Source of the DNA: Dudresnaya verticillata
Taxonomy: Eukaryota
Assembly: GCA_977862235.1 (NCBI GenBank)
Contig: OZ374565.1
Location: forward strand, 186,001 to 250,000
Length of the DNA: 64,000 bases
Reading direction: 5' to 3'
Made by a program: the position numbers and the translations under genes. Numbering within the stretch: the stretch's first letter is position 1; each line of letters opens with the position of its first letter. Below the pieces are notes generated by a model that saw only the letters and a list, made by a program, of their open reading frames with translations, did no database searches and was not told the origin of the DNA. Below are positions 17,610 through 47,262 of the stretch, piece by piece.

Positions 17610-19229
17610 CACCCCAACAATGTGGAACGGGTTTGAAGAGCCGTAGTAGCTACTACAGTAACAACGTACCAATCTACCGAGATCATGGAAAGGCATGAGA
17701 AACTCTAAGCTCCCTGGTCTTTCCCTTATGCGGGACAAACATAATCAAGATAGCTTTTCTTGACCCGAGTATAATTTGCCTACCTCGGTAATGATGTGAG
17801 TTCGTGGTGGCTGTTAACCGCCGTGCACTCTTTGACCGTTGCCTTTCACATGAATTGTAAGCAGGTCCCCTTAAGGGCTGTAGTCTTACCTATGCATAAA
17901 GGGCTCCCTCAACGTATTGTTTGCTTGTTTAGGCCAGGGCTTTGCCGCGTACTATTGCGGTCTATTTTTCGTCAGTATTGACAATATGCAGTAATATTGC
18001 AATACTGAGAGAAAGGGCAATATTTATTGCTATTTGGTCCAATGTTTCACCAGATCGATTCCTCATATGCTCTATGAATTATATTCAGTCCAACGAGTCG
18101 GTATCACTATCATATTGATGACATTGATGTAGTAGACAGCACCCGGACCAACAGCATTAGTAGAATGTTGTCTGTCCAGTGTTCTCTCGATGACATATGA
18201 ATGCAATCTTAGGCCCATTCGTTACTGTTTGGGTGCACTCCGACATATTCTATGAACAATTCCACGATACTTAACATATGCAGTGCAAGAGAGCAAACGT
18301 CTGGCCTTGGTAACTACTCTTGCTGTCGTTTTAAAGTGGACTCTTTTCTGTGTGTGAATCGTTTGATGCGTGTGTGTTGTGTCGTGCTGTCTATGTATGA
18401 ACAGCCGAGGCTATGTAGAGCCTCTTCGCCACAACAAAATACTACGAAAGGAATGTATCTGAGATATACTGGCACTACGAGCTGTCACAACGCTAGCGGT
18501 ATATTATTGCCGTAGCTTTGGTGACACTCTACTATCAGAATGCAGCTGCAGTATTCGTGGAGTGCACTCTCTTACATGCAATACTTAGACAACTGCCCTA
18601 TACATACATATATATCTACTATTGAGATATATATTCAACTATATAAATAGTAGCATCTTTTCAGTCTGAAGACTATTTCCATAATGGCCTCGTTCTTTTC
18701 GTAATGGAACTGATACGGCGTTACCAGGAGCACTGTTCCTTAACACAAGCAGCATTTCTTATCTCTCAACTTTTAATTCCTTAAAAGAAATACGTCAGCA
18801 GGCTGTCGACATCAAGAAAGAGACGACCGCATTTCGAAGCCCAGCATTTGAAGGTTGTCAAGGTACAACCGAGTAAAGGCTTAGAAGCCTTTAGGGTTAC
18901 GGTACCTAATTACAGTGTCTTACACCTGGTGATATCGAAAGTGCAGAGTTTGTATGGATCTGGGGCGAATCAGTAGTTCCGGAGAGAGAGGACGAGTTTG
19001 AAGGTCCAGTGGAAGGTATAGAACGTACCCCATTGTGCACCCATTGCCCGAGAAGCACAAACATACGATTTTATGGCAGTGCAAATCCACAAGGGGTCCC
19101 CAATATCTGATCTGATTGTCGGCGACAGGCCGTCTGCTCGACATCGCCTGATAGAGCGTGATGCGAGGACGTGAGAATATTAATTTCTATCACAGATTCG
19201 AGTCTGTCTGGGTGTGGTGCAGTTGACAG

Positions 19230-19839
19230 TGTTACACATAGCGCTCGCACTGTTTGGGAGTACTCCCTACAATGGGATCCCAAAGCGCACACGCGACGCT
19301 GCAGGGTAATTCCCTAGAATGGGAGCCTGCTGGGGAACGCACTGCTGAACAATGGCAGACCCCACGGCCGATCATGGCTATCGCGCACAGACCTGGTGAA
19401 CCTGCACAAGGCAGAACTGCCGGTCTGACAAGGCGAATTTGCGTCCCTTCGGACAACCCTCTACATCTTATTGGCTAACGCTCAGGGTCCCCTGACAACA
19501 GGGTTCAGACCTGAATGACTTTCCGTCCGTCCCCGACCCACTGTGGGACGGCGGGTGTGAACACATCCACCTGTTCAGGTCTATCTGACTTGGAGCGGAT
19601 CCCGCGAGCATGCGGGCCACAAATACTGTGGGTCGCTTTGAGCCGTCCGGCTGTAGAAATAATAAAGCCAGCACGCTGGCGTCGAACGACGAAGACGAGG
19701 GACAACACACCACTCCTCATCCACGCCGTGACTTTGCCCTCCACTTTGCCAACCCCAACTTTCTCTCTACCGACCTTTTACTTTTCCTTTTCGCGTTCGC
19801 GATCTACTGCTTCGAAGGCAAAAGCGGTTACGCGTCACA
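19230..19839 (+). repeat. 5' LTR of the Gypsy element
   Basis: TGTTACACAT...CGCGTCACA; about 8 substitutions versus 35871-36480 by eye. Confidence 0.95.
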
Positions 19840-19922
19840 GTAATTACTTTTCCCCGGAGTAGTTTCGTTTTTGTTGACGAAGCGAGATTGTGTTCACGGT
19901 GACCAGCACTAGGAGTGCTACG

Positions 19923-21655
19923 AATGGATCCAATGCCCAAGATTCATGCACAAAATCCGTGTCCGTCAGACGATCGTCGAAACGGTGGAAGCGAAGGCTG
20001 ATAGGACTGTCAACGGCTGACTTCGTCTTGTTCAAGCACGATCGCGAGATCTATGAACGACGAGTCGCTGAGAAGAATTCGGATCCGAATGTTAAGATCC
20101 AGCTTACGACCTACAAGGACTCTATTCTACCTGCTGTGCTGGAGATCTTCGCACTAGGTGACTGGGTTCCGATGGACACCGTTGATGACATCTGTAGTAG
20201 AATGGCTTTGAAGCCAACAGAGACGGCGACACGGCACGACAGCTGTCCTCAAAGAGCGATCCCACTCGCGTGGTTGGTAGCTCGGTAAAGGGGTGGTAGA
20301 GACTTGAAAGGGCTTAAAGCCCTAACAAAGGAAAAAGGGATAGGCGAACCCTGCTGAATAGAGCAATTCGTCGTAGACGACAGGGCTTGTAGACGCCCAA
20401 AGGGAAGTTGTAGCGGTAGCACCGTAAGCGTCCAAAAAGGGGAAAACCCAAGGCACAGACCGCTGCCGGTTTAGTGCCGGGCCCCTGCTACTCAGGGGCC
20501 CCATAAATACAGCGAGAGCCGAAAAGTGCTCCTCGCTCAGTTAGAGCTCTATGGCTAATACTTAGCTAATACTGTACAATACAGGTACGATATATCCTTA
20601 GATAGGAATGAGTGGTCAGGCCACAAGGCCCGCGCGGCGCCACTGTCAGGCGCCGTGCGGCAAACATCCGCCAGCAATGCATGGCGCGATGGTGCGGCCA
20701 TGGTTAATCCCCAAATGGCACAGGGCCATATTATCTGGAGCAGTGTGCCCTACAGATCAACTCTGTACACGTGTTGCCTTACAGCGCAGGAGCGTTCCAG
20801 CAATGAAATCAATCGGAGCACCAGCCATGTCATCCGGGCAGTTGTGCGCCCGTCATTCCTTACAGAGGACTCGTGTCCACGTGGCTCCTTACAGGGCGTC
20901 AACGCCCGTTGTACCACAACATCACGGAGAACCATCTTGAGGACTGTGTGGCCAAGCAGGCTGTAGTTAATCCTGATGATTATGATCTTGGAAAGCTCGA
21001 TGATTCCCTCAATGACTAGAAGCTCGGACGAGCGGATAGTGAACACAACCTAGAAGCCCAAGTTTAGCAGCTGATCTTTGAATACACCAAGATCTTACAG
21101 AACTGTGGTTACAATAAGTTTGCCGAACGGCACCCGAAGCTTGCCGTGGAGCACATACTGAAGCGTATCACTCACCCGTTCCTGAAGAACCGCATGATCA
21201 TGACTGCGCGTCTGAAGAAGGACGAGGACTTTCAGAAGAACTTCAAAGTTTTCGTACGAGAACTCGCGAAGGAGGCGCGGCTGATCGACCGCATGAACGC
21301 CGCCAAGAAATACAAAGCGCCCGCTACCGCTTTCGACAAGTTTGCTACTCGTGTTGCGGATGATCCGCCGCCGACGGCGCCATACCGATCGGGTAGTTCC
21401 GGTTCCGGACGTAAGAATAAGAACCGTTGTAATAAAGGTGGTGCATCTGGCAGTACTGCAGAAGATGGGAACCACAATCAAGACAAACCGTTCGGTGGTA
21501 ACGATGGCAGAGGTAAACACTTTCGCGAACCTCCCCATTGTCTCAACCCAAAGTGCGACAAGCGCCATTGGGTTGATGACTGTGAAATAACTGCGGACGC
21601 AGAGAAGAAACGTCTCAAGGATGAGTGCCGTGCGCGTTCGCAAGCGCGCAAGTGA
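19923..21655 (+). pseudogene. gag of the host Gypsy element, split by the solo LTR at 20193-20918
   Basis: Reading PMDTVDDI|TENHLEDCVAK resumes across the insertion. C-terminal Zn-knuckle-like CLNPKCDKRHWVDDC. Confidence 0.8.
20193..20918. mobile_element. Solo LTR (726 bp) inserted in gag
   Basis: TGTAGTA...TACCACA ends with perfect 5-bp TSD ACATC (20188-20192 and 20919-20923). Confidence 0.9.
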
Positions 21656-21727
21656 TCGAAGCAGGACTCAGAGAAGCGAGAAAACATCGGATCTGTAGAA
21701 CTACCTACCGAAGGAGAACACACTTCA

Positions 21728-22757
21728 ATGTTCTCAGCCTCATTCTGTTCAGGTGCTGTAGAGGTGTCCGCCTTAACCGATCAAGGTTCGGATGCTAATC
21801 TAATTTCACCATCAGTACTGAAGGAGATCTTACAGGCTGACCCAGATGTTCGAGTTGTGACTCTACCAAAGAAGCTGGAGTTCTCCAATGCTCATTCTTC
21901 TGCTGTGAAGATCACGTGCAGCAGGCAAGTATCCGCTGACGTAATGCTACGCGTACGCCATGGTACGAACCTCATCTTGCGAGGAATGAAGTGGCTGGTC
22001 ACAAACGCTGCAGTACAGCACGTTTATGTCGGACGACATGTTCTCGCGTCTATAGGGTTGAACAACCGTGTCATGCTCGAGTTCGCGGCTGATAGATTCG
22101 GAGGAGTCGTCGACGTCCCAGAAGTTCTTCATAAGGATGGGAGTGGCGACAATCCTTGCGCCGACGCCGGTGCGTCTATCCATGGAATCCTTCGCGAACG
22201 CGGTTTGGATTTCGGAAGCACCTTCCACAGCAAAGGGGGTGCTGAGGACGATCAACTCGAAGACAGTAACGTCTACGTCGATCTTGGCGAGGACTCGCCG
22301 GATGATTTGAAACAGGCGATCGCCGCAATGGTCGAAGACGCTCGCAACAATGGACTGAGCGATACCGGAGCCGAACGGCTGACCTCTATCCTGGACAGGT
22401 ACCCGGTTTTCGGATTCGGCTGGGCAAATCCCAACCAGTCGACGTTCCGCCAATGAGGGTACGACGTCAACAAGGATACCGACCGGTACGTTTGAAAGCA
22501 AGGAGATACTCCGGTGAACAAAGGAACTTCCTGAACGCGCGCGTCGTACGCGTACGTGGATCGGCTCAAGGAGATGGAATTTTCGAGGAGATGACAACCG
22601 CCGAATGGCAAGCGGCACCTCTCCTTGTGCCGAAGCCTGTTTGCAGAGCTGGGTATCGTATGACCGTGGACCTTCGCCCGGTCAATGGCGCGACAATCAA
22701 AGAGTCGTGGCCAATGCCTCATCTGGACAGCGAGGTGTATGATTTCTCAGGGAGCAC
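21728..22757 (+). pseudogene. pol 5' part of the host element (protease and RT N-terminus)
   Basis: DQGS protease motif. RT N-terminus ends EVYDFSGST at the insertion and continues CFASLDFVSGYWQ at 33142. Confidence 0.9.
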
Positions 22758-23185
22758 TGTGGTGCAAGGGAAGGGCTGCCCCTTTTTCGCTGTGAGCGTA
22801 TTATATGCCAACGTCTACCGACGGCACGTCGACCGCCGTTGGCGCGCGAACACGTCATGGACGGTTGGCCCACGGGCATACGGCCGCCGTTACCCGGCGC
22901 GGCGCACGCGCCCACTGTACGGCCAGATCCAGATGCACGATCCGGATCGGCCAGGCGCAAGGCGCACGCCTGTAAGCCTGGCCCGGATCCGGATCGGATC
23001 CGGATGGGACATCGGGATCCGGCATCGGGATCCACAGTGATGTAAGGAGCGCGTCTGTAATGGCCGCGCGCCAGCAATGCTGGTAGGGATCTGGATCCGA
23101 ATCCGGATCACCCACAATGCTACACGCATGCGCCTATAAGCTACTCCTGAGCTCCCGCGCGCGCGGCTGCATGGCGACGACGACG
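22758..23185 (+). repeat. Outer inverted arm A (428 bp), left; contains a GGATCC/GATCCG cluster
   Basis: Reverse complement of 32709-33136, about 9 mismatches by eye. Confidence 0.95.
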
Positions 23186-23803
23186 TGTCAGACACTCGAC
23201 GACGCGACACGCGTCCTGAGTCCCCGCGCACCGCGCCTGCCGCCGTCACTCACGTAGTATATGAGGTAATCCGTCTGAGACGCTGAGTAAATCCCGGACA
23301 AGCCGGCCTTGGTCCAGACTTCCCCGTTCCGCACGCGCGTACCCTACCGCTGCCTACGGCTAAGCGTCTACCTCCCGTGCTTCTACGTCTACCATCGTCC
23401 TTGACGTGCTCCCTTTCTGTTTCCTTTCCCCTTCCTTCACACCTTCCGCCTCGGGCGTCTACAGTCCGCCCAAGGCGTGCCCCTTTTGCTCTACCAACAA
23501 CTCGCCCACGGCGGGATCACCTACCGCCAAGGGCGCAGCTACCCACCGAGCCCCGCACTGCTCGGCGGTCTATCGTCTCGGACGTTTTGCACCACATCTG
23601 GTCTCCCGACCTAAAATTGTGCTACGTTTCAACGAGTTACTCCGTCGTGCGACGTCCGACTCTTCGTCTTCAGACGTTTGTCGCTAATCGTCCACGACGT
23701 TCAAGCAACTCTACGATTGTATCATGGCCTCACGACCGCCGCCGTCGAGAGGCCCAAGTTCAAGAAGACCGTCTTCGACGCCAGGGAGTGTACCCGCGTC
23801 ACA
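23186..23803 (+). other. Left LTR-like cassette D (R/U5-like, internal LTR end, PBS-like site, gag-like start)
   Basis: Starts TGTCA and ends TCACA. Directly oriented, diverged homolog of 32152-32708. TTGCACCACA at 23587-23596 is followed by TGGTCTCCCGAC at 23599-23610. Confidence 0.7.
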
Positions 23804-25172
23804 AGCGCCCTCGGAATGCAGCCGCGCGCCTGACACATTTGCCCACGCCACCGCGCGCGCCGCGCTAATGCTTACACCTACACGTGTTCACGCACCGCGC
23901 TTACAGACTCTTGGTCCCATTGTCCTCCGCTGCCCTGTGACACGTGCCACGTGTGCAAGTATGCCACGGGGCGCAGCAGCGTGACCCAGTAACTACACCT
24001 CACGCGTTCTCTCAACCCGACATTGCCGTCACTATCCGCTGTGAGCGGGAGGTCTGGTTCTTGACCAAGTTGCCCGACAAAGTCGAATGACTAGCGCCAT
24101 CGGCGGAAACAGGGATCACGAGCGGGTTCGCGCCTCGAGCTCAATTCCAGTCGCCAAAGGCGGTAGAAACGTCAAAGACGGGAGCTATCCGTCTAGGACG
24201 GTACAGAGCGCCAGCGGCGTTGGATAATTTGCACCATATGGCCCCCTTCCAAAACGCGAACACGCGAAGCAAATTCGTGAGGAACGTATTATTACCGGCC
24301 GTGCCGTGGTTATGTCACTTCCATTCCCCTCAAGGACGTGCGGCGTTGCCGAGTTTCCCGTCATAAGACGACTTGAGCAATTCACTAGTAGCGGTGTGCC
24401 CAGGGCTCCGAGGTCACCGGTGGTAGAACGTCCAAGACGGTTATCCCCGTGTAGGGCGGCTACCAGCGCTGCGCAGTAGCCGGGCGTCCACGCGCATAAA
24501 TAAACGATAAATTTTGACGGCATGCAGAAGCGCACCAATCAGCGTTCAATTTGCGTGCGGCGTGAAGCGCACCAATGAGCGCTCAATTTGGGTGTGCGCA
24601 GGTCACGTGCCTGTAAGCCCAAGCGCACCAATCAACGTCCAATTTGCGTGCAGCGCGAAGCGCACCAATGAGCGCGCAATTTGGGTGTAAGGCGAAGCGC
24701 ACCAATGGGCGTTCAATTTCCTGGCGCACAGGTCACGTGCCTGTAAGCTCAAGCGCACCAATGAGTGTCCAATTTGCGCGCGGGGCGAAGCGCACCAATC
24801 ACCATCCAATTTGGGTGTAAGCTGAAGCGCACCAATTAGCGCTTGATTTCCTTGTGCACAGGCCATTCGTCTGTAAGGCGGAGCGCACCAGTCATGCGTC
24901 GGGGGCTCTTACGTTCGGCGCGGCGTGCAGTGAACCGCCATCGGCGGGCGTGATCGTCAGGGACGGTATGAAAAACGCTAATGCGTGCGGTTGCGTCTTT
25001 GACGATATGGCGCGGCATGGCGCGGGTGCGGCCCAGCCGGAAAACGTCTGTGACGATATTGTGCGGCATGGCGCGGGTGTGCGCCATCCGGAAAACGTCT
25101 GAGACGGCATATCCTGGGATGGCGCAGGTGTGCGCCAGCCGGGAAGCGTCTAGGACGATATAGCGCGGCATG
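23804..25172 (+). repeat. Inner inverted arm B (1369 bp), left
   Basis: Reverse complement of 30783-32151, about 6 mismatches by eye. The ORF track mirrors it (24185..24538 minus equals 31417..31770 plus). Confidence 0.95.
24527..24895. repeat. Tandem array of AAGCGCACCAAT..CAATTT units (about 37 and 57 bp; 8-9 copies), mirrored at about 31060-31428
   Basis: Repeated GAAGCGCACCAATnAGCG.TCAATTT; the longer units contain GGTCACGTGCCTGTAAG. Confidence 0.9.
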
Positions 25173-27412
25173 GCGCGGGTGTGCGCCAGCCAGAAAACGT
25201 CTGAGACGGTATATCTTGGGATTGCGCAGTTGTGCGCCAGCCCGGAAGCGTCTCGGACGATATAGCGCGGCAGGGCGCGAGTGCGTCTCAGCCGGAAAAC
25301 GTCAATGACGATGCAAAGCGGCCGCGGCGGATCACCGTGTGGCCTCAAACGTCAATGACGATATGTAACGTCGATAACGATAAGATTCGGCACATTTCTG
25401 CTTACCCGAGAACGAAAACGTCAATGACGATATGCAACGTCTATCACGATACGAAGCGGCTCGTTCAGGGTGACCACGAACGTGCCAACGTCGATGACGG
25501 TGAAACGGGGCACTTCGCAGGTAAGCGCGTGCCCCAAAACGTCGATGACGACATTGAGCGTCGATGACGATAAGAAGCAGCTGTGGCGGGTGACCGGGTG
25601 GACCACGAACGTTCAAACGTCGACGACGGTGAAAAGGTGCACAGTGGAGGTAACCACGTGTCCCAAACGTCAATGACGCTATTGAGCGTCGACAACGTTG
25701 CAAAAGGGGTCGACAAGAGTGACCGCGTTGACCAAAACGTCAATGACGGTATGCAACGTCGATGACGATATTGAGCGGCCGTGTTAGGAGCCTGCCCCTA
25801 CTAAAAACGTCGATGACGATATGAGACGTCCATGACGGTACGAAGTGGAACGGCATGGGTTACCGAGTACAACAAAACGTCAATGACGATATTCAACGTC
25901 GGTAACGGCACGAGGCGGCACATGCGGTTGACCCCGAGTACCAAAACGTCCATGACTGTGAAATGACGGTACGAAGCGGCACATGGCAGCTGTCCGTGAG
26001 TCTGCAAACGTCTGTGACGGTAAACTTGGCAGTTCGCGTGTGATCGCGTGCACGTAACGTCAATGACGACACGCAACGTCGATGACGGTATGAAGCAGCA
26101 CATTGCGGGTGCCGCGATCCTTAAGACGTCGACAACGGTGAGGTGTGGCTCGAGGAGGGCAACCGCGTGCACTAAAGCGTCAATAACGATACAAAACGTC
26201 GATGACGATTCGAAGACGCCGTTGCCGGAGACCGCGAGCCTGAGCACGTCGACGACGGCACCAAATGGCACTGTACGGGTTACCGCGAGCCGGGAAAACG
26301 TCTATGACGGTATTGAGCTGGCATGGCGCGGTGATTCGCAAGCCGGGAAACGTCTGTGACGGTGTGTATCTGTGTGCTGCGAGTGAACGCGCAACGGCAG
26401 AACGTCTGTGACGGCGTATTTCGGCATAGAACAGGGTTGTGCGAGCCGTGTGCGAGCCGCGACCCGCACCAAAACGTCAATGACGATACGAAACGTCGAT
26501 GACGACAGGAAACGGCACGTTTCGGATGACCACGAGCCGGATAACGTCGACGACGGTGCTATATCGCACTAAGTGGCTGACCGAATGCACTAGAACGTCG
26601 ATGACGATACGAAACGTCGAAGACGATACGAAGCTGTCTTTGCTTGTGACCACGGGTACCAAGTGCTGCAAAGCGTCAGTGACGGTATAAAGCGACGTTG
26701 CGTGGGCTTCACCGCGCGACTGAAGAGCAGGAAACGTCAATGACGGTAAAAAGCAACATGTCGCGAATATCGGCGAAACGTCATTGACGGGATATCAAGG
26801 CAATAGGCCGGTTGCAGCAGAGCGGGAATCGTCGGTGACGGTAGAGAGCAGCATGGCACCGATATTCTCGTGGCATGAAACGTCCATGACGATAATGAAA
26901 CCACATGTGCCAGGTTTCTGTGTACTCGACGTCGACGACGATATACCGCAAGAGGGATCGGGTGATCACGAGTTTGCAATCGTCGATGACGGAAAACACA
27001 GTATGGCGTGAGTAACCACGATCCAAGAATCGTCTTTGACGCTAAAATGCGTCATGAGACGGTTGGTCGCGTTCCAAGCGTCGATGACGGTATCAATCGC
27101 TTCAGCGAGATAGTGCGGCTGAGTACGCATCGGTGATCGTACATGACGGAAAAGGCAACATGGTCCACATGTCGTGAGTAACCATGCGAATGAATCGTCT
27201 GTGACGGTGCAAAGCGGCACGCCGGGCATGGAACGCGAAGTCGCGTGCAGAACGTCAACAGTGATTAACAACCAAGTGGAGACCCCGGAGGGCCCGATTT
27301 CGATATTGTTCCAACGTCTCAAGACGGGTAAGTGTTACACCGACTCTGTCGAACCGATGAATCGTCGAAGACGTATTGGTGCGTACTGCGGTCTTGAACG
27401 TCAACGACGTTT
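24990..27412. repeat. Array of about 50 palindromic AACGTC-NNN-GACG motifs at about 51-bp and 19-bp spacing with diverged spacers
   Basis: Examples: AAAACGTCTGTGACGAT, AAACGTCAATGACGAT and AACGTCGATGACGG at about 25045, 25096, 25147, 25198, 25249, 25300, 25350, 25369, 25419, 25438 and onward. Confidence 0.9.
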
Positions 27413-27832
27413 TTGGTGGGATGGGTGTCCGGAATCACAATATCCAGTGGATATTCGGCCAAGCCGGCTTGAGCTCCGTCATCGACGCTCTATTGTTAGA
27501 CTTGAACTTGAGCGCTCGGATGCACGGAGGGCAGACTCGCCAGAGGCGGAAATACGGATGACGACACGTTCGGCAGGGGATATAAAGATCCCCTGTTAGG
27601 CGAACGGTCGGAAACGTCGCATATCGGCATAGCCGGGAGAGCCGAAGCAAACACGGGGCGGACACGGTATTCCGACTTCATCGTCATGCGTCTTGACCGT
27701 TCGAACGATGGTTCACTGCCAATCGCCCATGACGGGCGCCTTGAAGAGGCCCCAGGGGACAGTGATGGTCGGGACGGACCCACAGTATTCTCAAAAACGT
27801 AGAAAAACGTCGTGGACGAGTAGCGAAACGCT

Positions 27833-29776
27833 TTGAAAGCGGTTGATCGGTCGTCGCACGACGTTGCAGTTCGTAGAAACGTAGTCCGTCCGCAAGTGGT
27901 CGTACCCTGCGCGTTACGCGCTCGCTTACTCCACCTCCGGCACCACGCCAAGTTGGCAGGGCACCCAGGGGGGCGTAAGTTGTATCATACGCTTCGACGC
28001 GAATACTATTGGCCATCGATGCCAGTGGACTGCTATGCGACCGTCCGCAACTGCGTAACCTGCGCTAAGAATCGCGTATTGCTGCGAAAGAACACCAAGT
28101 AATTGAAGTTGTTCCCGGCAACCGAGCCTCTCGAATTCGTATCGATCGACATCCTGGGCGAACTCATACGCACGAAGCGAGGAAACAAGTTCCTACTCGT
28201 CATTGTGGACCGCTTTTCGAAGCTGGTCCGGACGGTCCCACTGCGTAGTATTGCGGCATTGGAAATCGCTAAGGCGTTTGTACGAAATTGGGTCTTCGGG
28301 TACGGTCCTCCCAAGACATTGTTGTCCGACAACGGACCACAGTTTGTGGCTAAGCTGTTTCAGGATATCTGCCGTCTTTTGGGAGTGGAGAATCTCTTCA
28401 CCACGACGTACCATCCGCAATGCAATGGCCAGGTAGAACGATTCAATCGAACTATCCTGGCCTCGCTGCATCACTACGTCGCGGATCATCCGAGAGACTG
28501 GGACCTGTTCACGGATGCCTTGACGTTCGCATACAACACCCAGTTGCATTCTTCTACGCATCTCGCTCCGTTTGAATTGGTGCTGTCTAAGCCACCACGG
28601 CTATTGTCGCTCGAAGCGGAACCGTCGCTCGAAAGTGTACCCACCGCGGGGCAATACTACACCAAGTGGCGAACCTGGCTGGCCGCACTGATGGGAGCCG
28701 CTAAAGCGTCGTTGGAGAAAACTCAAGCACGTTACAAACGACACTTCGATACCAGATTAAGGAAATCGAAGGAAGCAATCGCCATAGGCGACTTCGTATT
28801 CGTACGTAAGGAATACTTCGCCCCAGGCGGGAGCACGGATAGCGCAGAGCGTAAGCATAAGCTGGCACCAGTGGCGGACGGACCATACTGGGTAACTCAC
28901 GTTGATAACGAGACAGTAACCGTCGACAAGGGACGGGATGAGCGGGAACGTTTGTCCCAAGATCGCGTGGTCTGGGCGCCGACCCCACCGGGTCAGGCGG
29001 CCCCTCCAATCGTCGTACCACCAGGCCCGCCTGAGGAGCAGGGAGCAGTCGCCCCCACGTCACACGACGAAGGGATGACTACCCCAAGCACGCCGCCAGC
29101 GGACCCGGAAGAGGACGCAGACACTTCGCATACTGCGAGAGATCCGCAAGAGCGTACGATCGCAGCGTCACGCAGTCGTGGGTTGGCAGAGCGTTCGCCC
29201 TTCGCCGCCGATCCCGACGACCGCGCTTCGCAATCCGTCTCCAACGACGACAGTACCCCAGGGGTTCGCACCCGTTTGGAACACGTCGCTACGGCACCGC
29301 CGAATGAGAACAATGACTCAGCTGAAAGCGCGTCCGATAACGAAGACGTTAACCGTGCAAGCACGAAGCAAGGCGCTGCAAGCGATGAAATCGTCTCAAG
29401 ACGCAACAACCCACTGGCCGCTGATCGAGCGTCCGAGGCCCAAGGCCAACGCCTTCGGCGATCAACTCGTCGAGTACGCTTGGCCGAACCGGAACAGACG
29501 CCCATCACGCAACGAGACAAACCGCCAAAGGCGCTGGACAGGCCCACGTCCAAGCCGAACGCTGTGAGCGGAAAATAATACATGATTGAACGCATCGAGT
29601 CGCACGCGTACGCGGATGATGATGAGATCCTCTACCGCGTCAAGTGGTTTGGATACCCCGCTTCAGCGAACACCTGGGAGCCAGTCTACAGTTTTCCGCG
29701 ATCCCACGTCACACGATACGACCGTCGAAAACGTACGCAGCTACCGCCAAACGTCGACGACGCGGAGCGCGGCTAA
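27833..29776 (+). pseudogene. Gypsy-type DDE integrase with HHCC zinc finger, GPY motif, low-complexity linker and chromodomain; one frame, two in-frame TAA stops
   Basis: HHAKLAGHPG..YYWP..CVTC, SIDILG, LLSDNGPQF, NGQVERFN, ADGPYWV and YRVKWFGYPASANTWEP. ORFs 27833, 28103 and 29582 share a frame, with stops at 28100-28102 and 29576-29578. Confidence 0.92.
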
Positions 29777-30782
29777 CCCTAATCCGGAAATACCGCTGGA
29801 AGCGAATGGACGGACGATCGAGACCGCGTGTTCGACCTACGATCGCCAAAGGCGCGGAAGCGCAACCCATAGCCTGTGGACGCGGTCGCCAGAGCGACAG
29901 CGCCAAACACGTGTGCACACCATGGACGAACGCGGACGCAAGTCGTTGCGTCATAGACAGCCTCTCGCACGCCACCTCGCAGCAGCCCCAATACGGAACC
30001 TCTGGATGGGTGCGCTGTTGACAGTGGATCCAGATCGCAAATCGAGATCCACCACCGGCGCCCCTCAGGTAATAGGAGGCAGTAGTTGGTCAAATTTTAA
30101 TTTCCAAACACGGCAGCGCGCACCACCCCGCCGTCAACGCACGACGAACGCAATCATGCCAAGTGGCTGATCAGGTGCTACAAGCCCCAGCGACGACAGG
30201 CTCAAGTGGCAGCGCACAACAACCGTCTCCGACGTCGAGACGTGCACTCGCCCCACGGCCAAGTCCCTGGGACCGCCACCCTGCCGGCCACGGTCTCGCG
30301 CGCAAGCACCCGTCGAACGTCTCCGACGTATCTTGCCGGAGAAGGGGCGCACCGACAAACCCACCCCCGAAGGGGGGGAAGATGGTTGAAGACGCATTTG
30401 CTGTGGGTTCCGTGCACGACGCGCCAACAAATCGCCAACGACTCCACCGCTGCCCGTGGCCGCCGCGGTCGCAGTCGCGCGAGCGCGACCGACAACTCTA
30501 CCCTACCCCCAAGAAGGAACGTCGAAGACGAAAGGGGCGGCAACGCTAAGGCGTCAACACCTACCTCACCGCCTTCGCGACCCTCGTTGAGGACGCCGAC
30601 AAACCACGCCTAAGGCGCAGTGCGACACATGCATTATAAAAACGCTAAGTAAGCGGAAATACACCAACGCCGCACGTGAAACACGAAGAAAAACGCTACT
30701 ACAGTGGACACTACCAGCCAAACACAGCCGCAGCGCAACGCACGGCCAAGGCTAAAGGCATCAAACGCCAACGCTACGATAG

Positions 30783-32151
30783 CATGCCGCGCTATATCGT
30801 CCTAGACGCTTCCCGGCTGGCGCACACCTGCGCCATCCCAGGATATACCGTCTCAAACGTTTTCCGGATGGCGCACACCCGCGCCATGCCGCACAATATC
30901 GTCACAGACGTTTTCCGGCTGGGCCGCACCCGCGCCATGCCGCGCCATATCGTCAAAGACGCAACCGCACGCATTAGCGTTTTTCATACCATCCCTGACG
31001 ATCACGCCCGCCGATGGCGGTTCACTGCACGCCGCGCCGAACGTAAGAGCCCCCGACGCATGACTGGTGCGCTCCGCCTTACAGACGAATGGCCTGTGCA
31101 CAAGGAAATCAAGCGCTAATTGGTGCGCTTCAGCTTACACCCAAATTGGATGGTGATTGGTGCGCTTCGCCCCGCGCGCAAATTGGACACTCATTGGTGC
31201 GCTTGAGCTTACAGGCACGTGACCTGTGCGCCAGGAAATTGAACGCCCATTGGTGCGCTTCGCCTTACACCCAAATTGCGCGCTCATTGGTGCGCTTCGC
31301 GCTGCACGCAAATTGGACGTTGATTGGTGCGCTTGGGCTTACAGGCACGTGACCTGCGCACACCCAAATTGAGCGCTCATTGGTGCGCTTCACGCCGCAC
31401 GCAAATTGAACGCTGATTGGTGCGCTTCTGCATGCCGTCAAAATTTATCGTTTATTTATGCGCGTGGACGCCCGGCTACTGCGCAGCGCTGGTAGCCGCC
31501 CTACACGGGGATAACCGTCTTGGACGTTCTACCACCGGTGACCTCGGAGCCCTGGGCACACCGCTACTAGTGAATTGCTCAAGTCGTCTTATGACGGGAA
31601 ACTCGGCAACGCCGCACGTCCTTGAGGGGAATGGAAGTGACATAACCACGGCACGGCCGGTAATAATACGTTCCTCACGAATTTGCTTCGCGTGTTCGCG
31701 TTTTGGAAGGGGGCCATATGGTGCAAATTATCCAACGCCGCTGGCGCTCTGTACCGTCCTAGACGGATAGCTCCCGTCTTTGACGTTTCTACCGCCTTTG
31801 GCGACTGGGATTGAGCTCGAGGCGCGAACCCGCTCGTGATCCCTGTTTCCGCCGATGGCGCTAGTCATTCGACTTTGTCGGGCAACTTGGTCAAGAACCA
31901 GACCTCCCGCTCACAGCGGATAGTGACGGCAATGTCGGGTTGAGAGAACGCGTGAGGTGTAGTTACTGGGTCACGCTGCTGCGACCCGTGGCATACTTGC
32001 ACACGTGGCACGTGTCACAGGGCAGCGGAGGACAATGGGACCAAGAGTCTGTAAGCGCGGTGCGTGAACACGTGTAGGTGTAAGCATTAGCGCGGCGCGC
32101 GCGGTGGCGTGGGCAAACGTGTCAGGCGCGCGGCTGCATTCCGAGGGCGCT
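30783..32151 (-). repeat. Inner inverted arm B', right
   Basis: Reverse complement of 23804-25172. Confidence 0.95.
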
Positions 32152-32708
32152 TGTCACACGCACGACGGAACGACACGTGTCCTGAGTTCCCGCGCGCCGC
32201 AGCGCCACCGCCGTCGCCCACGCAGCAGTAGTAATACTTAGGTAACCCGTCTAGGACGTCCCAGTAAACCCCGGCAAGCCGGTATGCCTTCACACTTCGC
32301 CCCTTCGCTCGTTAGCGTCACTGCCGCTACCGACGTTGGCTACGCGTTGCGACGATCGCGCTTCCGCGTCAATGTCCGTCTTTGACGTGTATCCCCTTTT
32401 GTTTTCCCCCTTTATGGCCTTGGTAGCCGAATGCCCCTTCCCGCTAGTGTGTGCGTCGCCACCGCTTCCGTTAGGCAAAGCGTCGGTACCACCGTCCCTC
32501 CACGTGCAACACCGTCGTTGACGTGTTTCCATTTCCGTCTTGTCTCGCTTCTTTGGTTTCGATCTACCTACCGCCCAGGGAGTTTACAGTCCGCCTTGTG
32601 GCGTTGTCCATGCTCTACCACCCCTACCGTCTCTGACGTGCTACCCGCCGGGTCTCGAACTGCCCGGGCATGTTTTTCCGTCCTAGACGTTTTGCACCAC
32701 ATCTGACA
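32152..32708 (+). other. Right LTR-like cassette D' (557 bp), direct orientation relative to D
   Basis: TGTCA...TGACA. Shares CGACACG.GTCCTGAGT.CCCGCGC, GGTAA.CCGTCT..GACG, TACAGTCCGCC and GACGTTTTGCACCACATCTG with D. Confidence 0.75.
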
Positions 32709-33136
32709 CGTCGTCGTCGCCATGCAGCCGCGCGCGCGGGAGCTCAGGAGTAGCTTACAGGCGCATGCGTGTAGCATTGTGGGTGATCCGGATTCGGATC
32801 CAGATCCCTACCAGCATTGCTGGCGCGCGGCCATTACAGGCGCGCTCCTTACATCACTGTGGATCCCGATGCCGGATCCCGATGTCCCATCCGGATCCGA
32901 TCCGGATCCGGGCCAGGGTTACAGGCGTGCGCCTTGCGCCTGGCCGATCCGGATCGTGCATCTGGATCTGGCCGTACAGTGGGCGCGTGCGCCGCGCCGG
33001 GTAACGGCGGCCGTATGCCCGTGGGCCAACCGTCCATGACGTGTTCGCTCGCCAACGGCGGTCGACGTGCCGTCAGTAGACGTTGGTATATAATACGCTC
33101 ACAGAGAAAAAGGGGCAGCCCTCCCCTTGCACTACA
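32709..33136 (-). repeat. Outer inverted arm A', right
   Basis: Reverse complement of 22758-23185. Confidence 0.95.
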
Positions 33137-33141
33137 AGCAC

Positions 33142-35830
33142 GTGTTTCGCCTCCCTGGATTTCGTGTCGGGTTATTGGCAGCTTCCACCGCATCCCGATT
33201 CCTACACCGCGTGTGGCGTCATCACACCGCGCGGGGTAATGATATCAAAACGCGTGTTGGATGATCTGGCGAACGCCCTGGCTTTTTCCAGAGCTCGGTC
33301 GAGCCTCTATTCGCCAGCCTGCGTGATTTTCTGAAGGCATGGCTGGACGATTTCAGCCTTCACGCCCCATCCCAGGAGATTCTTTTGGACAATCTCGAGA
33401 TTTTTCTCTGCATTTGTAAGGAGAAGAGATTGTGGCTTTCCGCACGGAAATGCAAACTCTTTCGCAAGAAACTTCGCTGGTACGGTCGCATTGTGTCTGG
33501 AGAAGGGTACACACTCGACCCCACACGTCTTTCGGGTTTGCAAGAAATGGGAACCCCGAAGACTGCGGAAGAACTTGCGCAGTTCATCTACTGCTATCGC
33601 TGGATGTCGCTCGCCATCCCCGACTTCGCGCGCCGCATCGCGCCGCTCAACAACATCTGGGAAGAGGCGTACGCCAAATCTGGAAGCGTACGAAGAGATC
33701 TATCCGCACGATCGCGCTCAGTAACCTGTCTTGGGGGTCCCCGCATGAGAAGGCATTTCTCGATCTTCAAGACAGCCTACGGACCGCTGTCACCCTCTCT
33801 TATCCGGATCCGGACAAAGCTATTTGCGTATTCACCGATGCGTCCGAACGGTTCTGGTCTGTCGTTGCCACGCAGTGCGACGAATTAGATCTGAAGAAGC
33901 CGGTCGGCGAACAGAAGCATGAACCCCTCGCATTTTTGGGTTCCCAGTTTACAGGCGCATCGTTGAACTGGTATACCTTCGAGAAAGAAGGATTCGCGGT
34001 GTTCCAGACCTTTGAGAAACTCGACTACATGCTGCTTGGTCACGCGCGTACTCACGCGTTCACGGATCATCGAAATCTAATGTTCGTGTTCGCACCTCTT
34101 GCGCTGGAACCAGCTCTTGGAAGGCACATTGTCTCAAAAGTTCAACGTTGGGCTCTGTACTTGTCCAAGTTCAGCTACGTCATTGAGCACATCAAGGGAG
34201 AAGAAAATGTGTTTGCAGATATTCTTACTCGCTGGGTCAAGGGCTACCGCAACGAGAAGTCAATGCTATGCAGCGTTATACTCGGAGAAGCTGAACAGCT
34301 CATCCCTGCCGCCGACGCAATTGTCTGGCCGGATATCGAAGTGATTCGCGACTCACAAGCGTCTCACACACGCACTGAAGGAGTACTCCTTGACGAGGAT
34401 GACAGATTGTGGAAGAAAAGAAATCTCTTCTAGATTCCGAAGGAGGACCTCGAACTCAAGCTCACAGTAATTGTGTGTTCACACTGTGGTACAATCGGAC
34501 ACCGAGGTATGGATGCAACCAAGAGCATCATACTCGAGAACTTTTGGTGGGAGACCAAGAAGGAGGATGTCGACGAGTTGGTTCGCGGATGCCTACACTG
34601 CATCGTAACTCGTACGGGGGAGATCGTCCCGAGACCGCTCGGACACGCTCTGCACGGCGAACGCCCTAATGAAGTTGTCCACGCCGATTTCCTTTCCATG
34701 GGTCAAGGTGTGGACGAGAAGAAATACGTCCTCATCATACGGGACGACTTGTCCTCGTAAATCTGGCTTTGGCCAACAGACGAGGCGGACGCCAACGCTG
34801 CCGCTGCTGTCCTGAACTCCTGGGTTGGCAGCTTTAGTTCTATGGATTGGCTGGTCAGCGATCAGGGCTCCCATTTCAAGAACAAACTACGCAAGGAGAT
34901 GGTGGAAGAACTGCGTTCGCAACATCATTTCACCACGGCTTATTCTCCGTGGGCGAACGGTTCCGTCGAGAGAGTTTGCCGCGAAGTCCTTCGTGCGTGC
35001 CGCGCGCTGCTCAGCGAATGGAAGCTATCGCCGAAGGATTGGCCTACAGTAACCGAGTAGAACATCATCAATCAAGCTCCGCTTCGGAAGCTCGGCTTCG
35101 CGACGTGGAAGTGCCAGGTGTACACCGCACTCCGCTCGAGGTCTTCACAGGACATCGACCTGTGCGTCCTCTACTGAGAGCCTTACCGAAGAACAAGTAC
35201 CGGTCGGCCAAAACAATCGAAGAGCTACGCGCACGCGCGCTTCTAAACATTGATCAACTCCAGGATGCGTTGTTCAACGTTCATCGAGATGTGAAAGAGA
35301 TCTCAAGTGCTGCGCGGAAGAGAAAGGTTGACCAACACAACAAGCGCACGAACGTTCACCGCGCTAACTTCATCGAAGGCGACTTTGTCCTCGTTCATCG
35401 CGCTCAGCCCGGTGGACACATGCTGAAATTGGTTTGGCGAGGACCTCGCCGCGTCACACAAGTCCGTTCGGAATGGGTCTTCGAGATACAGAACCTCATA
35501 ACGGACAAAAGGGAAGTGGTGCACGCGCGCCGCTTACACCTTTACCGCTCGGATATGGATGGCAAGGAAGTCCTTCCTGCACTGCTTAAAGCTGCGGAGC
35601 ACTCCGAGACAAGCTACCAGATTGCCGAACAAATACGCGGCATCAGCGAAGTTGATGGGAACTCCAGATTCACTTGGAGTGGTGTGGGCTCCCCGATGAG
35701 GTCGACTGGACCTGGGAAACCTTTCGCCAAGTCTTCGAGGACATGCCTGGACTGCTCGAAGATTTTCTCCACACTGCCGGGACCCGCAGTCTCAAACGAC
35801 GCGCGCTCGCGCAATGCAATTTCTCGTAAC
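33142..35830 (+). pseudogene. pol 3' part of the host element (RT, RNase H, integrase, chromo-like), with frameshifts and stops
   Basis: Motifs are spread over ORFs 33083, 33385, 33432, 34473, 34842 and 34847. Confidence 0.9.
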
Positions 35831-35870
35831 CAAGCTTCTTTGTTCACGCTGAACAGAAGCTTGGGGGCAC

Positions 35871-36480
35871 TGTTACACATAGCGCTCGCACTGTTTGGGA
35901 GCACTCCCTACAATGGGATCCCAAAGCGCACACGCGACGCTGCAGGGTAATTCCCTAGAATGGGAGCCTGCTGGGGAACGCACTGCTGAACAATGGCAGA
36001 CCCCACGGCCGATCATGGCTATCGCGCACAGACCTGGTGAACCTGCACAAGGCAGAACTGCCGGTCTGACAAGGCGAATTTGCGTCCCTTCGGACAACCC
36101 TCTACATCTTATTGGCTAACTCTCAGGGTCCCCTAACAACAGGATTCAGACCTGAATGACTTTCCGTCCGTCCCCGACCCTCTGTGGGACGGCGGGTGTG
36201 AACACATCCACCTGTTCAGGTCTATCTGACTTGGAGCGGATCCCGCGAGCATGCGGGCCACAAATACTGTGGGTCGCTTTGAGCCGTCCGGCTGTAGAAA
36301 TAATAAAGGCAGCACGCTGGCGTCGAACGACGACGACGAGGGACAACACACCACTCCTCATCCACGCCGTGACTTTGCCTTCCACTTTGCCAACCCCAAC
36401 TTTCTCTCTACCGACCTTTTACTTTTCCTTTTCGCGTTCGCGATCTACTGCTTCGAAGGCAAAAGCGGTTACGCGTCACA
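35871..36480 (+). repeat. 3' LTR of the Gypsy element
   Basis: Direct repeat of 19230-19839. Confidence 0.95.
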
Positions 36481-37938
36481 AGAGCAATGAGGAAGCGATG
36501 ATTCTTTTTAATGAATGTGTACGGTGGTCTTATGCGTGGGGCTGTTCCCGACAGGCAAGCATACCGGTGGGGTTTGGGTCTATCCTATGGAAGGGTTTGA
36601 GTTATGTGAGAACCTAAAGGGTTTTTTGGGGGACCCGAAAGGGTAAAATCGTGCCTGCAGGCGTCTCGGATGGACGAGATTGCACCGACGATGGCGCAGA
36701 GATTACATGCGCCAAGTGATGGTAGCGAAAGGGCTTTCAGAGACTGGGCCAGGAGTTGGGCTTCTTCGTCGAAAAATGGGTACCGAGGCGGGATGAGGAA
36801 CGTCCAGACGTGCCACTGATTTCCGCTTTCCTCCTCTGCGGTTCGACAACTTCAAGACAGGTGCTAACCGGTTTGCAGAGTACACAGGGCCAGGGAATCG
36901 CCCAGATAATTCCGCAAACCATTCTTGTAGCAGCGCTTCGCGCAATTCCCTCTGCGCTCCTGTGTGTCGGGGTGCTTGGCACCAAAAACACGTTGTGTAG
37001 TCTTAACAGCAAGTGTTATTTGAGCAAGCCGGGAGATCAGAAGTTTTGCTACGTCAACAAGGTTTCGTAACCCGCGCGCATCATAGTGCCCTAAAACGTA
37101 TGCTGAGCGTTAGAAAAGGATGTCCGATGCGGAAGAGGTCCCTGAGATCCTGCTAACGTGTGGCAGTGGTAACAAAATTGCCGTCAGGAACGCAAAAGCT
37201 GCTCTAGAAGTCACTCAGAGGGACACAGGTGTAGAGAAACCTCGGGGTAGAGGACAGGAGTCCGTCTACAGTACGTTTAATGTGGTGAAGTGGGGTCGGC
37301 TGCGTACGAGCGCAGATGAAGTGCCTAGATACGCAGGGTAGTGTGCAATCGCAAGCGTAGGTTCAGATGCCGCAGGTCTTCACTTAGGCTGAAATGTATA
37401 GGACTATTGCCGATTGGCATCACAACACTTTACGTATGTGTACAGACGGACCTACGCTGTATAGCGACTAACTTACCCAAGAGCCGGCAGCTCACACTGT
37501 TGCTCAGTCAGCAGTGGCTGCGACGCTTCCCCGGCTCGGGTTCACGGAGAGCGCCTCTGGGTGGCGCTTCGGCCAAAAGACACAGCCAATCATGGCGGTT
37601 TACACTTACGGTGCCGTCACGAAACGCAAACCGCGAAGCTCCGCACCAATTACAAAGCGGAGCGCCGCTTAACATTAATTTTGTGCACTCTACAGTACGC
37701 ACTGTACTCTAATTTATGGGAAAATTCCCCCGGTCAAGGACACGCGATGGACTCCGCGATAAGTTAGAGCGAGGATGGTATGCCGCGGCACGGAGGGGAA
37801 GGGTATTCGGTCAATGCAAAGTTTACTTAGGCGTTACAACGCGGAAAGGTCCACTAGCTAATCGGGCGCTCCCCCACTCACACCAATCTACTATCCCTAG
37901 GGAGCGTCCGATGCGAGCACTACAATGAGGAATTGACG

Positions 37939-40269
37939 TCAGTCCGAGTCAGAGTCCATTAGGTCAATGACTTCGTTTGGGCGCAACGGCGGATTCGCAA
38001 CGGGGCCTTGCCCTGGCATCATGGTCACGCGACGGACCTCGCGTACCATGCGACGACCGCGGCCGCGCCGAGCTCCGACTCCCCGCGCCGTAACTTCACC
38101 ACCCGCCTCGCTAGGCCCGGCATCTCCATCGCCAGACGGCGCGTCACCCTCCTGGACACCCATGTCCTCTTCCTAGAGCTCCTCCTTGAGCAGCAGCTCC
38201 GTCTTGACAATAACCTCTTGCGGCTCAGCCGCCGCCGGGGGAGATTCAACGGCGTTAGCAGGAAGGGTCAGCTCGAGTTGCAAACCATGGCCAGCGGGCA
38301 CTTCTGGCACGGGTAGGTTGACCGTTACCTCCATGGGTGAAGAAGTCGGGGCGCTCTCCTCAACGGCTCCTACCGCCAGCTGCGAAGCTGCAGCGGTTGG
38401 AGAATTGGTATGCGGACCCGAGGTAGCGACGGAAGACCCTTCACGCGGAACAGCGGATGTATCGGCAAGCGTGCCCTCGCGCGGATCCGCACCCTGTCTA
38501 CCACCGACTGGTGCCACGGGAGCACCCATACTTGGCAGCGAAACAGCGCGACGGTCTTGATGACCCAAGCCCAAACGGGAACGGCGCTGAAGTCGCGGGT
38601 CTCTTGAAACGGAAGCGGAAGCTGAGGCGCTCGGCGCGCTCGCCGCAGCTGAAGGATCTGCCACAGCGGAACCCAACACACTCGGCGCGCTCGCCGCAGC
38701 CGAAGGGCCTGGAGCCACGGCACTCGTCGGAGCTTCCTGAGCCTGCTCCGACTCCACGACGGTCTGCTGACCGACAGGCGGAAGCGCGGCTAACGACGCC
38801 TTCAACGCCTCGATGGGCCCCGGTGAGCTCACCCAGTTCGACTCATAGTTGCAAAGGACGTCTTCGACCCAATCCGCGAGACTGTAGAGAGTCAGATGGG
38901 TCACCTCCCAATGGACAGCCAAGCGGATGGCGAGACCTCGACGGTTGAATAAGTCCCGAATGGCGGCATCAGCCCTTGCGACGTTTCGCACTCTGGGTGC
39001 GTACGGACCCTGGGGCTGTCCCGACACAGTAGTGTCCATCGGCGGCACGTCAGCCGGAGTCGCGGGAGCCTCGCCGGAAGCACTATGCCAGTCTTTGGTG
39101 TAACCAGTCATGCGCTCACCGGTGTCAACGAGAAGCGTCTCACCTTCGGCGGGTTGCGGTTGCAGCAGATACTACGGTAGGAGAGGGTGCCACTGCACCG
39201 GGTCGAAGTCGACCCAATCACCACGGTCGTACACCGGCGTCACAAACCCGGTGTCCTCCGGAAGGTAGCGATTGCGCTTGCTCACACGACTCCAACGAAT
39301 GCGTTCGACGAACACGAGGAGCGCCTCCAAATCCGTAGCGTCGACAGCTGTCGTGGTGAGTAGGCCAATTCCAAGTCCCCGGATCTCGGTGCGCAGACCT
39401 GCGTTGATGTAATACAAGTACCCCCGACGGGCTTCATACATGAAGGTCTGCGCCACCATCACCACCCATTCGCTACGGAAGATCATCCACAAGAGGCCAT
39501 GATGATAGCTTTCGTGCATCATATCAAGGCCTCTATACGCCACGACTGGGGGTGTGCCGACAGGCATGGAGTAGGAAACTTCGTACTCACGATGATCCGT
39601 GGGAATAGGGACGTACTTCCCCGTGTAGAACTCGGGCTTGATGGCCACCACTTCTTGGCAGTGCGCCGGCACGAAGCACCCGGTCCGATGACGATGACGA
39701 CGCTCGAAGCGAAGGAGCTCGCGAGACATCACTGTCTGCGGATTGTCCAATGCGTACTTGAAGTTGGACGTCTCGTCCCACCACGTAATGCGCGCCATCG
39801 TGAATGGATAGTTATCCCGACCGGGGCGGATGAGTGGTCGTTCAAAAGCGACCAACTCCAGGCTGTAGCCTCCCTTCGCGTGGAACTCAATCAGCTCCGG
39901 CATGAACTCCATGAAGGCTTGAGAGTGGTGCTCCACGTAACGTTGCTCGAAGAGGAAGCGCACCATCGCGAGGTCCCACTTGTGGTTCGTTGGCAACGGC
40001 GGAAGCGCGATATTGGTCCCTCGCAGGATACCAATTCGCTCACGAATGAGAAACTCCCACGAGCGGGCTTGAGCGCGATGACGGCCATAACGGCGGATAT
40101 CTTCACGACGCGCACCGGCGGTGGCCCGAATATGGGTGAGGTCCGTTCGGAGCAGCCAGTCGCGGCTCTTCGTGATAGACAAAGGCACACCTGCCGCATC
40201 AACGCCAAACCCGAGGACAGCCGAGCTAGAGCCCGCCTGCCCATACGGGAGGTTGGGAGTCGTCGCCAT
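37939..40269 (-). pseudogene. Long antisense accessory ORF of an LTR element (about 776 codons, two in-frame TAG stops), function unknown
   Basis: ORFs 39172..40269, 38173..39111 and 37939..38163 share one frame. Globular N-terminal half, low-complexity C-terminal half. Lies just upstream of the PPT and LTR at 41045. Confidence 0.7.
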
Positions 40270-40761: not shown

Positions 40762-40768
40762 TTATATA
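40762..40768 (-). promoter_or_regulatory. Candidate TATA box (TATATAA) for the antisense ORF
   Basis: GCTATATAAG on the minus strand in GC-rich context, about 490 bp upstream of the ATG at 40269 and followed by a pyrimidine-rich leader. Confidence 0.4.
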
Positions 40769-47247: not shown

Positions 47248-47262
47248 TGAAGAAGGGGGGTC

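Follow-up and report, generated by a model that had tools for sequence, protein, structure and literature searches.

An integrase-bearing 10.4-kb insert in a Gypsy-type element of Dudresnaya verticillata is best explained as a chimeric cDNA from several chromovirus templates

Chimeric retrotransposon insertions that arise by template switching and are flanked by target-site duplications (TSDs) have been published (PMC1950507). The cases set out in the relevant sections of that report, by Sabot and Schulman (2007), are fusions with one TSD, arranged in direct tandem, confined to one family and bounded by matching outer long terminal repeats (LTRs). In their discussion of where Ginger1 DNA transposons come from, Bao et al. 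(PMC2836005) propose that two LTRs in opposite orientation, with an integrase between them, could have given rise to the terminal inverted repeats (TIRs) of Ginger1. Here we describe a 10.4-kb insert at positions 22758-33136 of a 64-kb stretch of contig OZ374565.1 from the red alga Dudresnaya verticillata; we call this whole stretch, which contains no N, the window, and all positions refer to it (plus strand unless stated otherwise). With a probability that we put at about 0.6, the insert is a multi-template reverse-transcription chimera, drawn from two or three sister chromovirus families and integrated by way of two U3 ends by an integrase acting in trans. The original prediction for this locus had proposed either a chromovirus-derived class of DNA or foldback transposons or a non-autonomous retroelement with an unusual replication scheme. 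The alternative that it had set against its own proposal, a one-off aberrant cDNA, is the one that fits best.

The insert begins with TGTGG, ends with CTACA and is flanked on both sides by AGCAC (22753-22757 and 33137-33141), the left copy lying within the reverse transcriptase (RT) gene of a Gypsy-type host element (19227-36480). We built a profile from 33 related full-length Pol proteins and aligned it with the six frames of 19000-37000, in-frame stops being read as X. Across the insertion site the host RT frame is continuous: the match covers profile positions 333-420 up to 22737 and restarts, six profile positions on, at 426 from 33137. The exact splitting of the host RT, the TG...CA ends with their 5-bp TSD, and insertion as one unit by a Gypsy-type integrase were thus all rightly read in the original prediction. 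Such ends and TSD are those of a complete Ty3/Gypsy element. The near-identical direct LTRs at both termini and the gag-protease-RT-RNase H-integrase coding region of such an element are lacking, and the right terminus is a flipped U3.

Each end had been described as an inverted repeat of about 1.8 kb. What we find is two inverted arms per end, separated by spacers that are not inverted. The outer arm A (22758-23192) differs from its inverted partner A' (32702-33136, minus strand) by 9 substitutions in 435 nt (97.9% identity), and the inner arm B (23795-25172, minus strand) from B' (30783-32160) by 8 substitutions in 1378 nt (99.4%), neither pair with an indel. The spacers of 602 and 541 nt resemble each other in direct orientation, with a local alignment score of 174 as opposed to 22 when inverted and a maximum of 53 in 100 shuffles.

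This arrangement reflects two LTRs. LTR1 (22758-23596; 839 nt) runs from TGTGGTGCAA to TTGCACCACA and has a 10-nt terminal inverted repeat; LTR2 (31717-32701; 985 nt) runs from TATGGTGCAA to the same TTGCACCACA. Since both end in the inverted repeat of the first ten bases of the insert, 22758-23596 is a complete 5' LTR, of which arm A is the front 435 nt, a U3-like part whose boundary is inferred and which ends at the palindrome GTGT-CAG-ACAC. The attachment (att) end at the front of LTR2 starts with TA instead of TG, in B and B' alike. The distal parts of the two LTRs are 77% and 75% identical in the first and last blocks of the spacers, and their front parts cannot be aligned (z 0.6 and 1.2). 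Because the LTR bodies agree at 75-77% and the leaders described below at 70%, as against a divergence of 1.5% between the host LTRs, LTR1 and LTR2 are not the LTR pair of one element. We refer to their sources as family 1 and family 2. Arms A and B are not TIRs, and the ends and arms of the insert are ordinary LTR-retrotransposon parts from sister families.

LTR1 is followed by TC and a primer-binding site (PBS), TGGTCTCCCGACCTA (23599-23613). Among 90 related loci (all 80 metagenome loci and the 10 best of the 37 in genome contigs; the other 27 and the 5 viral loci were distant or short), this PBS is identical at 15 of 15 positions in the RT-bearing loci L005 and L007 and at 13 of 15 in L043, L045 and L046. 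In each it stands 5' of pol, open reading frame (ORF) positions having been mapped for four of the five, and a search of the 90 loci that allowed up to three mismatches also returned scattered weaker matches elsewhere. L045 moreover shares 9 of 10 bases of the LTR1 end and the TC spacer, next to its similar PBS. The start of the PBS, TGGTC, would presumably suit tRNA-Tyr (C1:G72, A73); ARAGORN detected no tRNA, and hence no priming tRNA, in the window or the related loci. Behind the PBS lie a family-1 leader and a short frame (23614-23800; ATG at 23724, about 24 codons) cut at the first junction, J1, which we take from its position, and from a match described below, to be a gag-like start. In front of LTR2 stands a polypurine tract (PPT), the purine run GGAAGGGGG (31705-31713), within B', which holds the family-2 3' region in native orientation and starts inside a 51-bp tandem array. 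A PBS after the 5' LTR and a PPT before the 3' LTR are chromovirus parts in their usual places, and the LTR pairs of related loci have the same ...CCACA-NN-TGG and purine-run-TGT layout. What follows LTR2 is TCTG (32702-32705), the four bases (spacer and PBS start) that also follow LTR1, in place of host flank, for which the chance is 1 in 256. TCTG would be expected at the end of an unintegrated cDNA; it also forms the first four bases of A', as the microhomology of junction J3. A', the flipped front 435 nt of LTR1, supplies the right att end.

The middle of the insert, read on the minus strand, has the anatomy of a second LTR element. Arm B holds repeat units, a PPT (24250-24242) and the front 438 nt of LTR2, and the rest of the same interior extends over 25173-27884, where it closes with a leader (27884-27784) and a decayed gag-like start (27783-27499). 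Over 161 aligned columns, minus-strand 27884-27714 agrees with the family-1 leader at 113 (70%, z 13.6), and the gag-like starts of the two families match as peptides better than all of 500 shuffles; among longer proteins, a search with the 95-residue gag-like remnant turned up no homolog. From the gag-like start a non-coding array leads on into arm B, with a 51-bp tandem array (24994-25312) running unbroken across the inner edge of B. Taken together, arm B and the middle are a non-autonomous family-2 element's interior in reverse, beginning some 25 nt past the primer site and reaching 438 nt into the LTR. In consisting of leader, gag remnant, long non-coding array, PPT and LTR front, it resembles non-autonomous LTR elements of the LARD type. 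It differs from that type in that the middle is present only embedded and reversed, no free copy having been seen.

The reversed middle is rich in the spaced palindrome CGTC-N3-GACG, of which the window holds 74 copies, 72 of them within the insert (null mean 0.61, maximum 4, in 100 dinucleotide shuffles). Exact copies number 42 in the reversed array and five per spacer, and the motif occurs in both LTR bodies and both leaders as well; no comparable spaced palindrome is enriched in the 90 related loci. As to a possible RNA-hairpin role of the motif, one-mismatch variants favour G.U-compatible transitions 7 to 1 on the LTR-sense strand (p 0.07), which is no more than suggestive, but single folds of 25300-26300, made without shuffles, gave -362.8 and -371.5 kcal/mol, similar for the two strands. 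A search against Rfam gave two matches, both below threshold. Pairs of motif copies at a spacing of 19 nt are frequent, their flanks being polar and in keeping with the LTR sense strand, and a second spaced palindrome, CGCC-N3-GGCG, has a raw count of 21 in the insert, taken without shuffles. Repeats of 37 and 130 bp at 24527-24894 and 31061-31428, upstream of the family-2 PPT, carry GCGCACCAAT (CCAAT-like) and TGTAAG on the antisense strand and are possibly the promoter or terminator of an antisense transcript. Four related loci (L005, L008, L045 and L046) have antisense ORFs of 750-1000 codons after pol.

The one protein recognised in the insert is an N-terminally truncated chromovirus Pol fragment at 27857-29776 with the HHCC, DDE and GPY/F motifs and a C-terminal chromodomain. 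In eight frames of the insert the only notable Pfam matches are Integrase_H2C2, rve and Chromo, and the Pol profile matches the insert only at 27857-29773 (profile positions 858-1389 of 1389). Remnants of protease, RT and RNase H were absent from the insert according to the Pol profile, and tblastn agreed. The claims of the original prediction that an integrase with chromodomain is the only recognisable protein, that two nonsense stops interrupt it and that it comes from a chromovirus are borne out: the stops lie in the homologous frame at 28100 and 29576, and the integrase groups with ordinary red-algal Pols. It begins in the linker between RNase H and integrase, at the place where the reversed leader ends, and no ATG precedes its zinc finger in frame.

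In a quick maximum-likelihood tree (102 rows: the insert, at most 40 loci hand-picked from 122, and closest or RT-tagged proteins, with no named Ginger or Polinton), the integrase falls among red-algal Pols that bear RT or RNase H, beside an RNase H-bearing protein with local support of 85. Its end branch is 0.26, the median being 0.25. Among the longer homologs listed, 120 of 252, Pfam identifies RT or RNase H in 119, and the remaining one shows an RNase H end motif. The integrase core reaches 65% identity to red-algal chromoviruses, Chondrus hits ranging from 52 to 66%, and the named relatives are from Chondrus crispus and Agarophyton chilense. The related loci, at 54% identity or less and from other organisms, have little bearing on this genome. 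At least 2.5 kb of upstream sequence is available for 53 of the 90, and 51 of these 53 have RT or RNase H; the exceptions are L088, a scoring artefact that does have RT, and L064, a 5'-truncated fragment without inverted arms. The inverted repeats of L074, L082, L107, L112 and L121 bound no RT-less integrase, an exact 26-nt probe from arm B' had no match in the metagenome contigs, and in viral contigs a single-protein scan confirmed nothing while an alignment scan gave the five distant loci. Several bacterial metagenome-assembled genomes in the genome collection (L001-L010, L004, L006) contain eukaryotic, algal-type chromovirus contigs, which is contamination.

Behind the integrase comes the 3' region of its donor (29777-30782). 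Its longest plus-strand purine run, at 30369-30382, 400 nt before junction J4, may, tentatively, be the donor's own PPT and so a third candidate PPT in the insert; the 400 nt after it are weakly like the front of LTR2 (z 3.0) and not like that of LTR1 (z 1.2).

The insert thus consists of defined parts in a defined order and orientation, joined at four junctions. Arm A ends 435 nt into LTR1, at 23192, and the perfect match of B ends at 32154, which aligns to 23188, so that on homologous LTR sequence the breaks of the two flipped copies lie no more than 4 nt apart, at the palindrome. We favour a chimeric cDNA because both spacers turn out to be directly oriented LTR bodies whose U5 att ends are intact; because the family-1 PBS recurs unchanged in two RT-bearing relatives, and LTR pairs of relatives have a like layout; because TCTG follows LTR2 as it does LTR1; because the flipped copies end at one LTR position and J4 lies 400 nt after a candidate PPT; and because the integrase starts at profile position 858 without a start codon and nests among RT-bearing Pols. 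We propose that a family-1 plus strand with LTR1, PBS, leader and gag start would have jumped at J1 to the 3' end region of a non-autonomous family-2 RNA, which would then have been copied backwards almost to its primer site to give arm B and the reversed array. At J2, synthesis would have moved onto a minus-strand DNA in which an integrase-bearing RNA was already joined, through J4, to a family-2 3' end, yielding integrase, chromodomain, B' and LTR2. The unintegrated end of this DNA would have consisted of U5, TC and two tRNA-copied bases, and TCTG could have annealed to LTR1 sequence at J3; from there the LTR1 front would have been copied back to its att end to give A'. Insertion would have been carried out by an integrase in trans using two U3 att ends, and the encoded integrase would be a dead passenger. 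Some junctions were possibly inherited from earlier chimeric copies and not formed in one particle.

Several points weigh against this explanation. Four junctions and no fewer than three templates have to be assumed, two of the templates being 25-30% apart, and the complex insertions set out in PMC1950507 are direct fusions of two copies from a single family. The 72-copy motif and the symmetrical layout might be taken for design. None of the data located the U3/R boundary of the LTRs, and the positions of TGTAA and TATAA located neither a TATA box nor a poly(A) site. Two of the eight B/B' differences lie at the outer edge of B, the perfect match to B' starting at 23801; without them 6 of 1372 positions differ (0.44%). 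B and B' are less diverged than A and A' (Fisher p 0.003), for which 6 of the 9 differences fall in the outer 90 nt, so that a chimeric cDNA needs two family-1 templates or later conversion. The stops cut both ways. By the B/B' clock, 0.13-0.17 stops would be expected in the integrase and the probability of two is about 0.01; if B/B' dates the insert, the integrase was therefore dead on arrival, in line with a chimeric cDNA. By the host-LTR or A/A' clock instead, two stops have a probability of 0.07-0.19 and are unremarkable.

A different history would start with a first insertion that made the AGCAC TSD, the layout being built afterwards in the chromosome by nested insertion, deletion, inversion and gene conversion. 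We consider this unlikely, though it has points in its favour: related loci often show nested insertions in opposite orientation (L082, L107), a switch between the insert ends could be seeded by the 10-nt att repeats, and B and B' are less diverged not only than A and A' but also than the host LTRs (p 0.02; A/A' and host LTRs do not differ, p 0.48), as later duplication or conversion would produce. Yet no internal TSDs were seen by eye at J1, J2 or J4, LTR2 runs into primer-site bases and not into a target duplication, the outer TSD and host RT are undisturbed, and there is no evident reason for chromosomal breaks to fall twice at the same LTR position. A single inversion between two homologous break sites was tried as a source of the layout and rejected, as either inversion leaves two independent junctions. 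Misassembly or a foldback-read artefact is very improbable. Long near-identical inverted repeats are hard to assemble, and polishing could have homogenised B and B'; the exact TSD, the continuity of the host RT, arm differences that are all substitutions, and unique spacers and core are, however, unlike a foldback read.

The TG...CA ends, the 5-bp TSD and an integrase amid long inverted arms would also suit a young chromovirus-derived DNA-transposon family with U3 ends as TIRs, an intact integrase elsewhere and a CGTC-N3-GACG array that binds the enzyme, which would accord with the proposal of Bao et al. for Ginger1 TIRs (PMC2836005) and with the concentration of 72 of the window's 74 dyads in the insert, no comparable array being found in the 90 loci. 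The acceptor-like TTGCAG at the start of the integrase (27864-27869) makes a spliced mRNA conceivable. We nevertheless regard such a family as improbable. The integrase is truncated, holds two stops and has no long branch; the insert keeps a PBS, a PPT, internal U5 att ends and gag-like starts, all of them dispensable for a DNA transposon; the motif is also in both LTR bodies and leaders and so predates the chimera; and an RT-less integrase between inverted arms occurs in none of the 90 loci, a weak argument given their distance. The idea of a DNA-transposon or foldback class is thus not supported by an insert that has two LTRs with att ends, a family PBS, a PPT, two leaders and two gag-like starts. 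Nor does a non-autonomous retroelement family that regenerates its inverted arms in each round of reverse transcription, DIRS-like and with helper RT and integrase, convince us; we think it quite doubtful. A promoter LTR, PBS, PPT and second LTR stand in the correct order, the arms are near-identical though the LTR bodies are 25% apart, and both junctions lie at one site. Standard reverse transcription would, however, yield direct LTRs beginning with the LTR2 front (att TA), and the internal region complementary to both ends that DIRS elements require, as described in PMC7192593, is absent from a self-comparison of the insert. The unusual replication suggested in the original prediction fails on this anatomy: neither PPT nor primer adjoins the A copies, so that the insert's own RNA cannot define its outer ends. 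That the insert is a decayed copy of some propagating family, a TIR-bounded unit with a chromodomain integrase, possibly spliced from the gag start over the 4-kb reversed segment, and with the dyad array as a protein-binding platform, is likewise unlikely, though not negligible.

The two host LTRs (19227-19839 and 35868-36480) differ at 9 of 613 nt (1.5%), and the gag-pol region between them (19840-35867) has many short frames broken by stops and frameshifts. Because it is decayed in spite of this low LTR divergence, the host element too was likely copied in trans from a decayed template. It has no clean TSD, ACAG facing AGAG with one mismatch if 4 bp are assumed (19205-19240, 36470-36490). 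Fourteen nt upstream of its 5' LTR lies TGTGGTGCAG, which has 9 of 10 bases of the insert att, and its LTR end CGCGTCACA recurs at J1; both are probably chance. The segment 15986-19517 is duplicated at 60467-64000 (3.5 kb, 99.8% identity, 44.5 kb apart) and includes the 5' end of a PNPase gene, a 200-codon frame and the start of the host 5' LTR (0 of 291 differences). The second copy continues past the end of the window, and an empty or filled target site may lie near 67240. The genes flanking the host region encode PNPase, lytic polysaccharide monooxygenase, VWA and HAT-repeat proteins. At 6389-10337 an AA10-type lytic polysaccharide monooxygenase gene (PF03067) is accompanied, at a distance of about 1.9 kb, by a decayed tandem paralog that shares 68% DNA identity with it, and 56854-59103 encodes a protein that looks secreted and has a Pro/Ser/Thr-rich 60-bp tandem repeat between its two VWA domains. 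More retrotransposon-like debris occupies 38173-47346, where the frame 43725-44363 resembles the pre-RT region of the host element and the long minus-strand frames 39172-40317 and 45161-45997 have no Pfam match.

If the insert is a one-off chimeric cDNA, it is an unusually readable fossil: it would imply that a chromovirus integrase accepts two U3 ends in vivo and that reverse transcriptase jumps between co-packaged families 25-30% apart. The recurrent break position in the LTR is probably an RNA end or a strand-transfer site, and the CGTC-N3-GACG array suggests that a non-autonomous LTR family of red algae carries a cis element not described before. Inverted LTR ends around an integrase are also the kind of substrate that the origin scenario in PMC2836005 invokes for Ginger1. 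Were the insert to belong to a family, LTR retrotransposons and DNA transposons would be linked by a direct intermediate, a living case of the Gypsy-to-Ginger transition that has only been proposed.

In the literature searched, whose coverage excluded most subscription journals and Repbase Reports, we found no Gypsy element of this layout, and only DIRS papers for inverted LTRs; a giant-transposon review (PMC6431247), as far as its accessible text goes, offered nothing similar. With red-algal Ty3/Gypsy chromoviruses the insert shares integrase and chromodomain, PBS, LTR att ends, PPT layout and 5-bp TSD. It differs from them in having no protease, RT or RNase H, two non-identical LTRs, a reversed interior and U3-type ends at both termini. 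Polintons/Mavericks, by the features given for them, have a protein-primed DNA polymerase B, a 6-bp TSD and AG...-type ends, in contrast to the TG...CA ends and 5-bp TSD here; no ORF of the insert is long enough for such a polymerase, and the frames scanned gave no Pfam match to one. DIRS-1, as presented in PMC7192593, has in common with the insert inverted, non-identical terminal regions in a retroelement context. Its tyrosine recombinase, its own RT and its internal complementary region are all absent here.

Ginger1, Ginger2/Tdd (PMC2836005) and GingerRoot (PMC6839031) share a Gypsy-like integrase without RT, TG...CA ends and inverted termini with the insert, which also has the 5-bp TSD reported for TDD-4/5 and the GPY motif of Ginger1. 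According to the element descriptions in these two papers, Ginger and GingerRoot TIRs measure 40-297 bp, with a TSD of 4 bp in Ginger1 and most Ginger2 and of 6 bp in GingerRoot; Ginger1 has OTU/Ulp1 tails, Ginger2 lacks GPY/F and GingerRoot lacks a chromodomain. The insert, by contrast, has a 435-bp outer arm and AGCAC where Ginger1 has 40-270 bp TIRs and a 4-bp CCGG/CCGT TSD; a chromodomain, two stops and no start codon where Ginger1 has a single transposase ORF with OTU/Ulp1; and a GPY motif, which sets it apart from Ginger2/Tdd. It has also retained PBS, PPT and the bodies of the LTRs, with a broken Pol fragment as its integrase. It resembles the hypothetical Ginger1 precursor sketched in PMC2836005, yet fails the Ginger features tested. 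With the complex insertions illustrated in PMC1950507 it shares several templates fused before integration, internal LTR ends and one flanking TSD. What distinguishes it from those examples is that its parts come from families 25-30% apart, that two of them are reversed, and that its outer repeats, 97.9% identical, are not direct LTRs but inverted and U3-only, the right end being a flipped U3.

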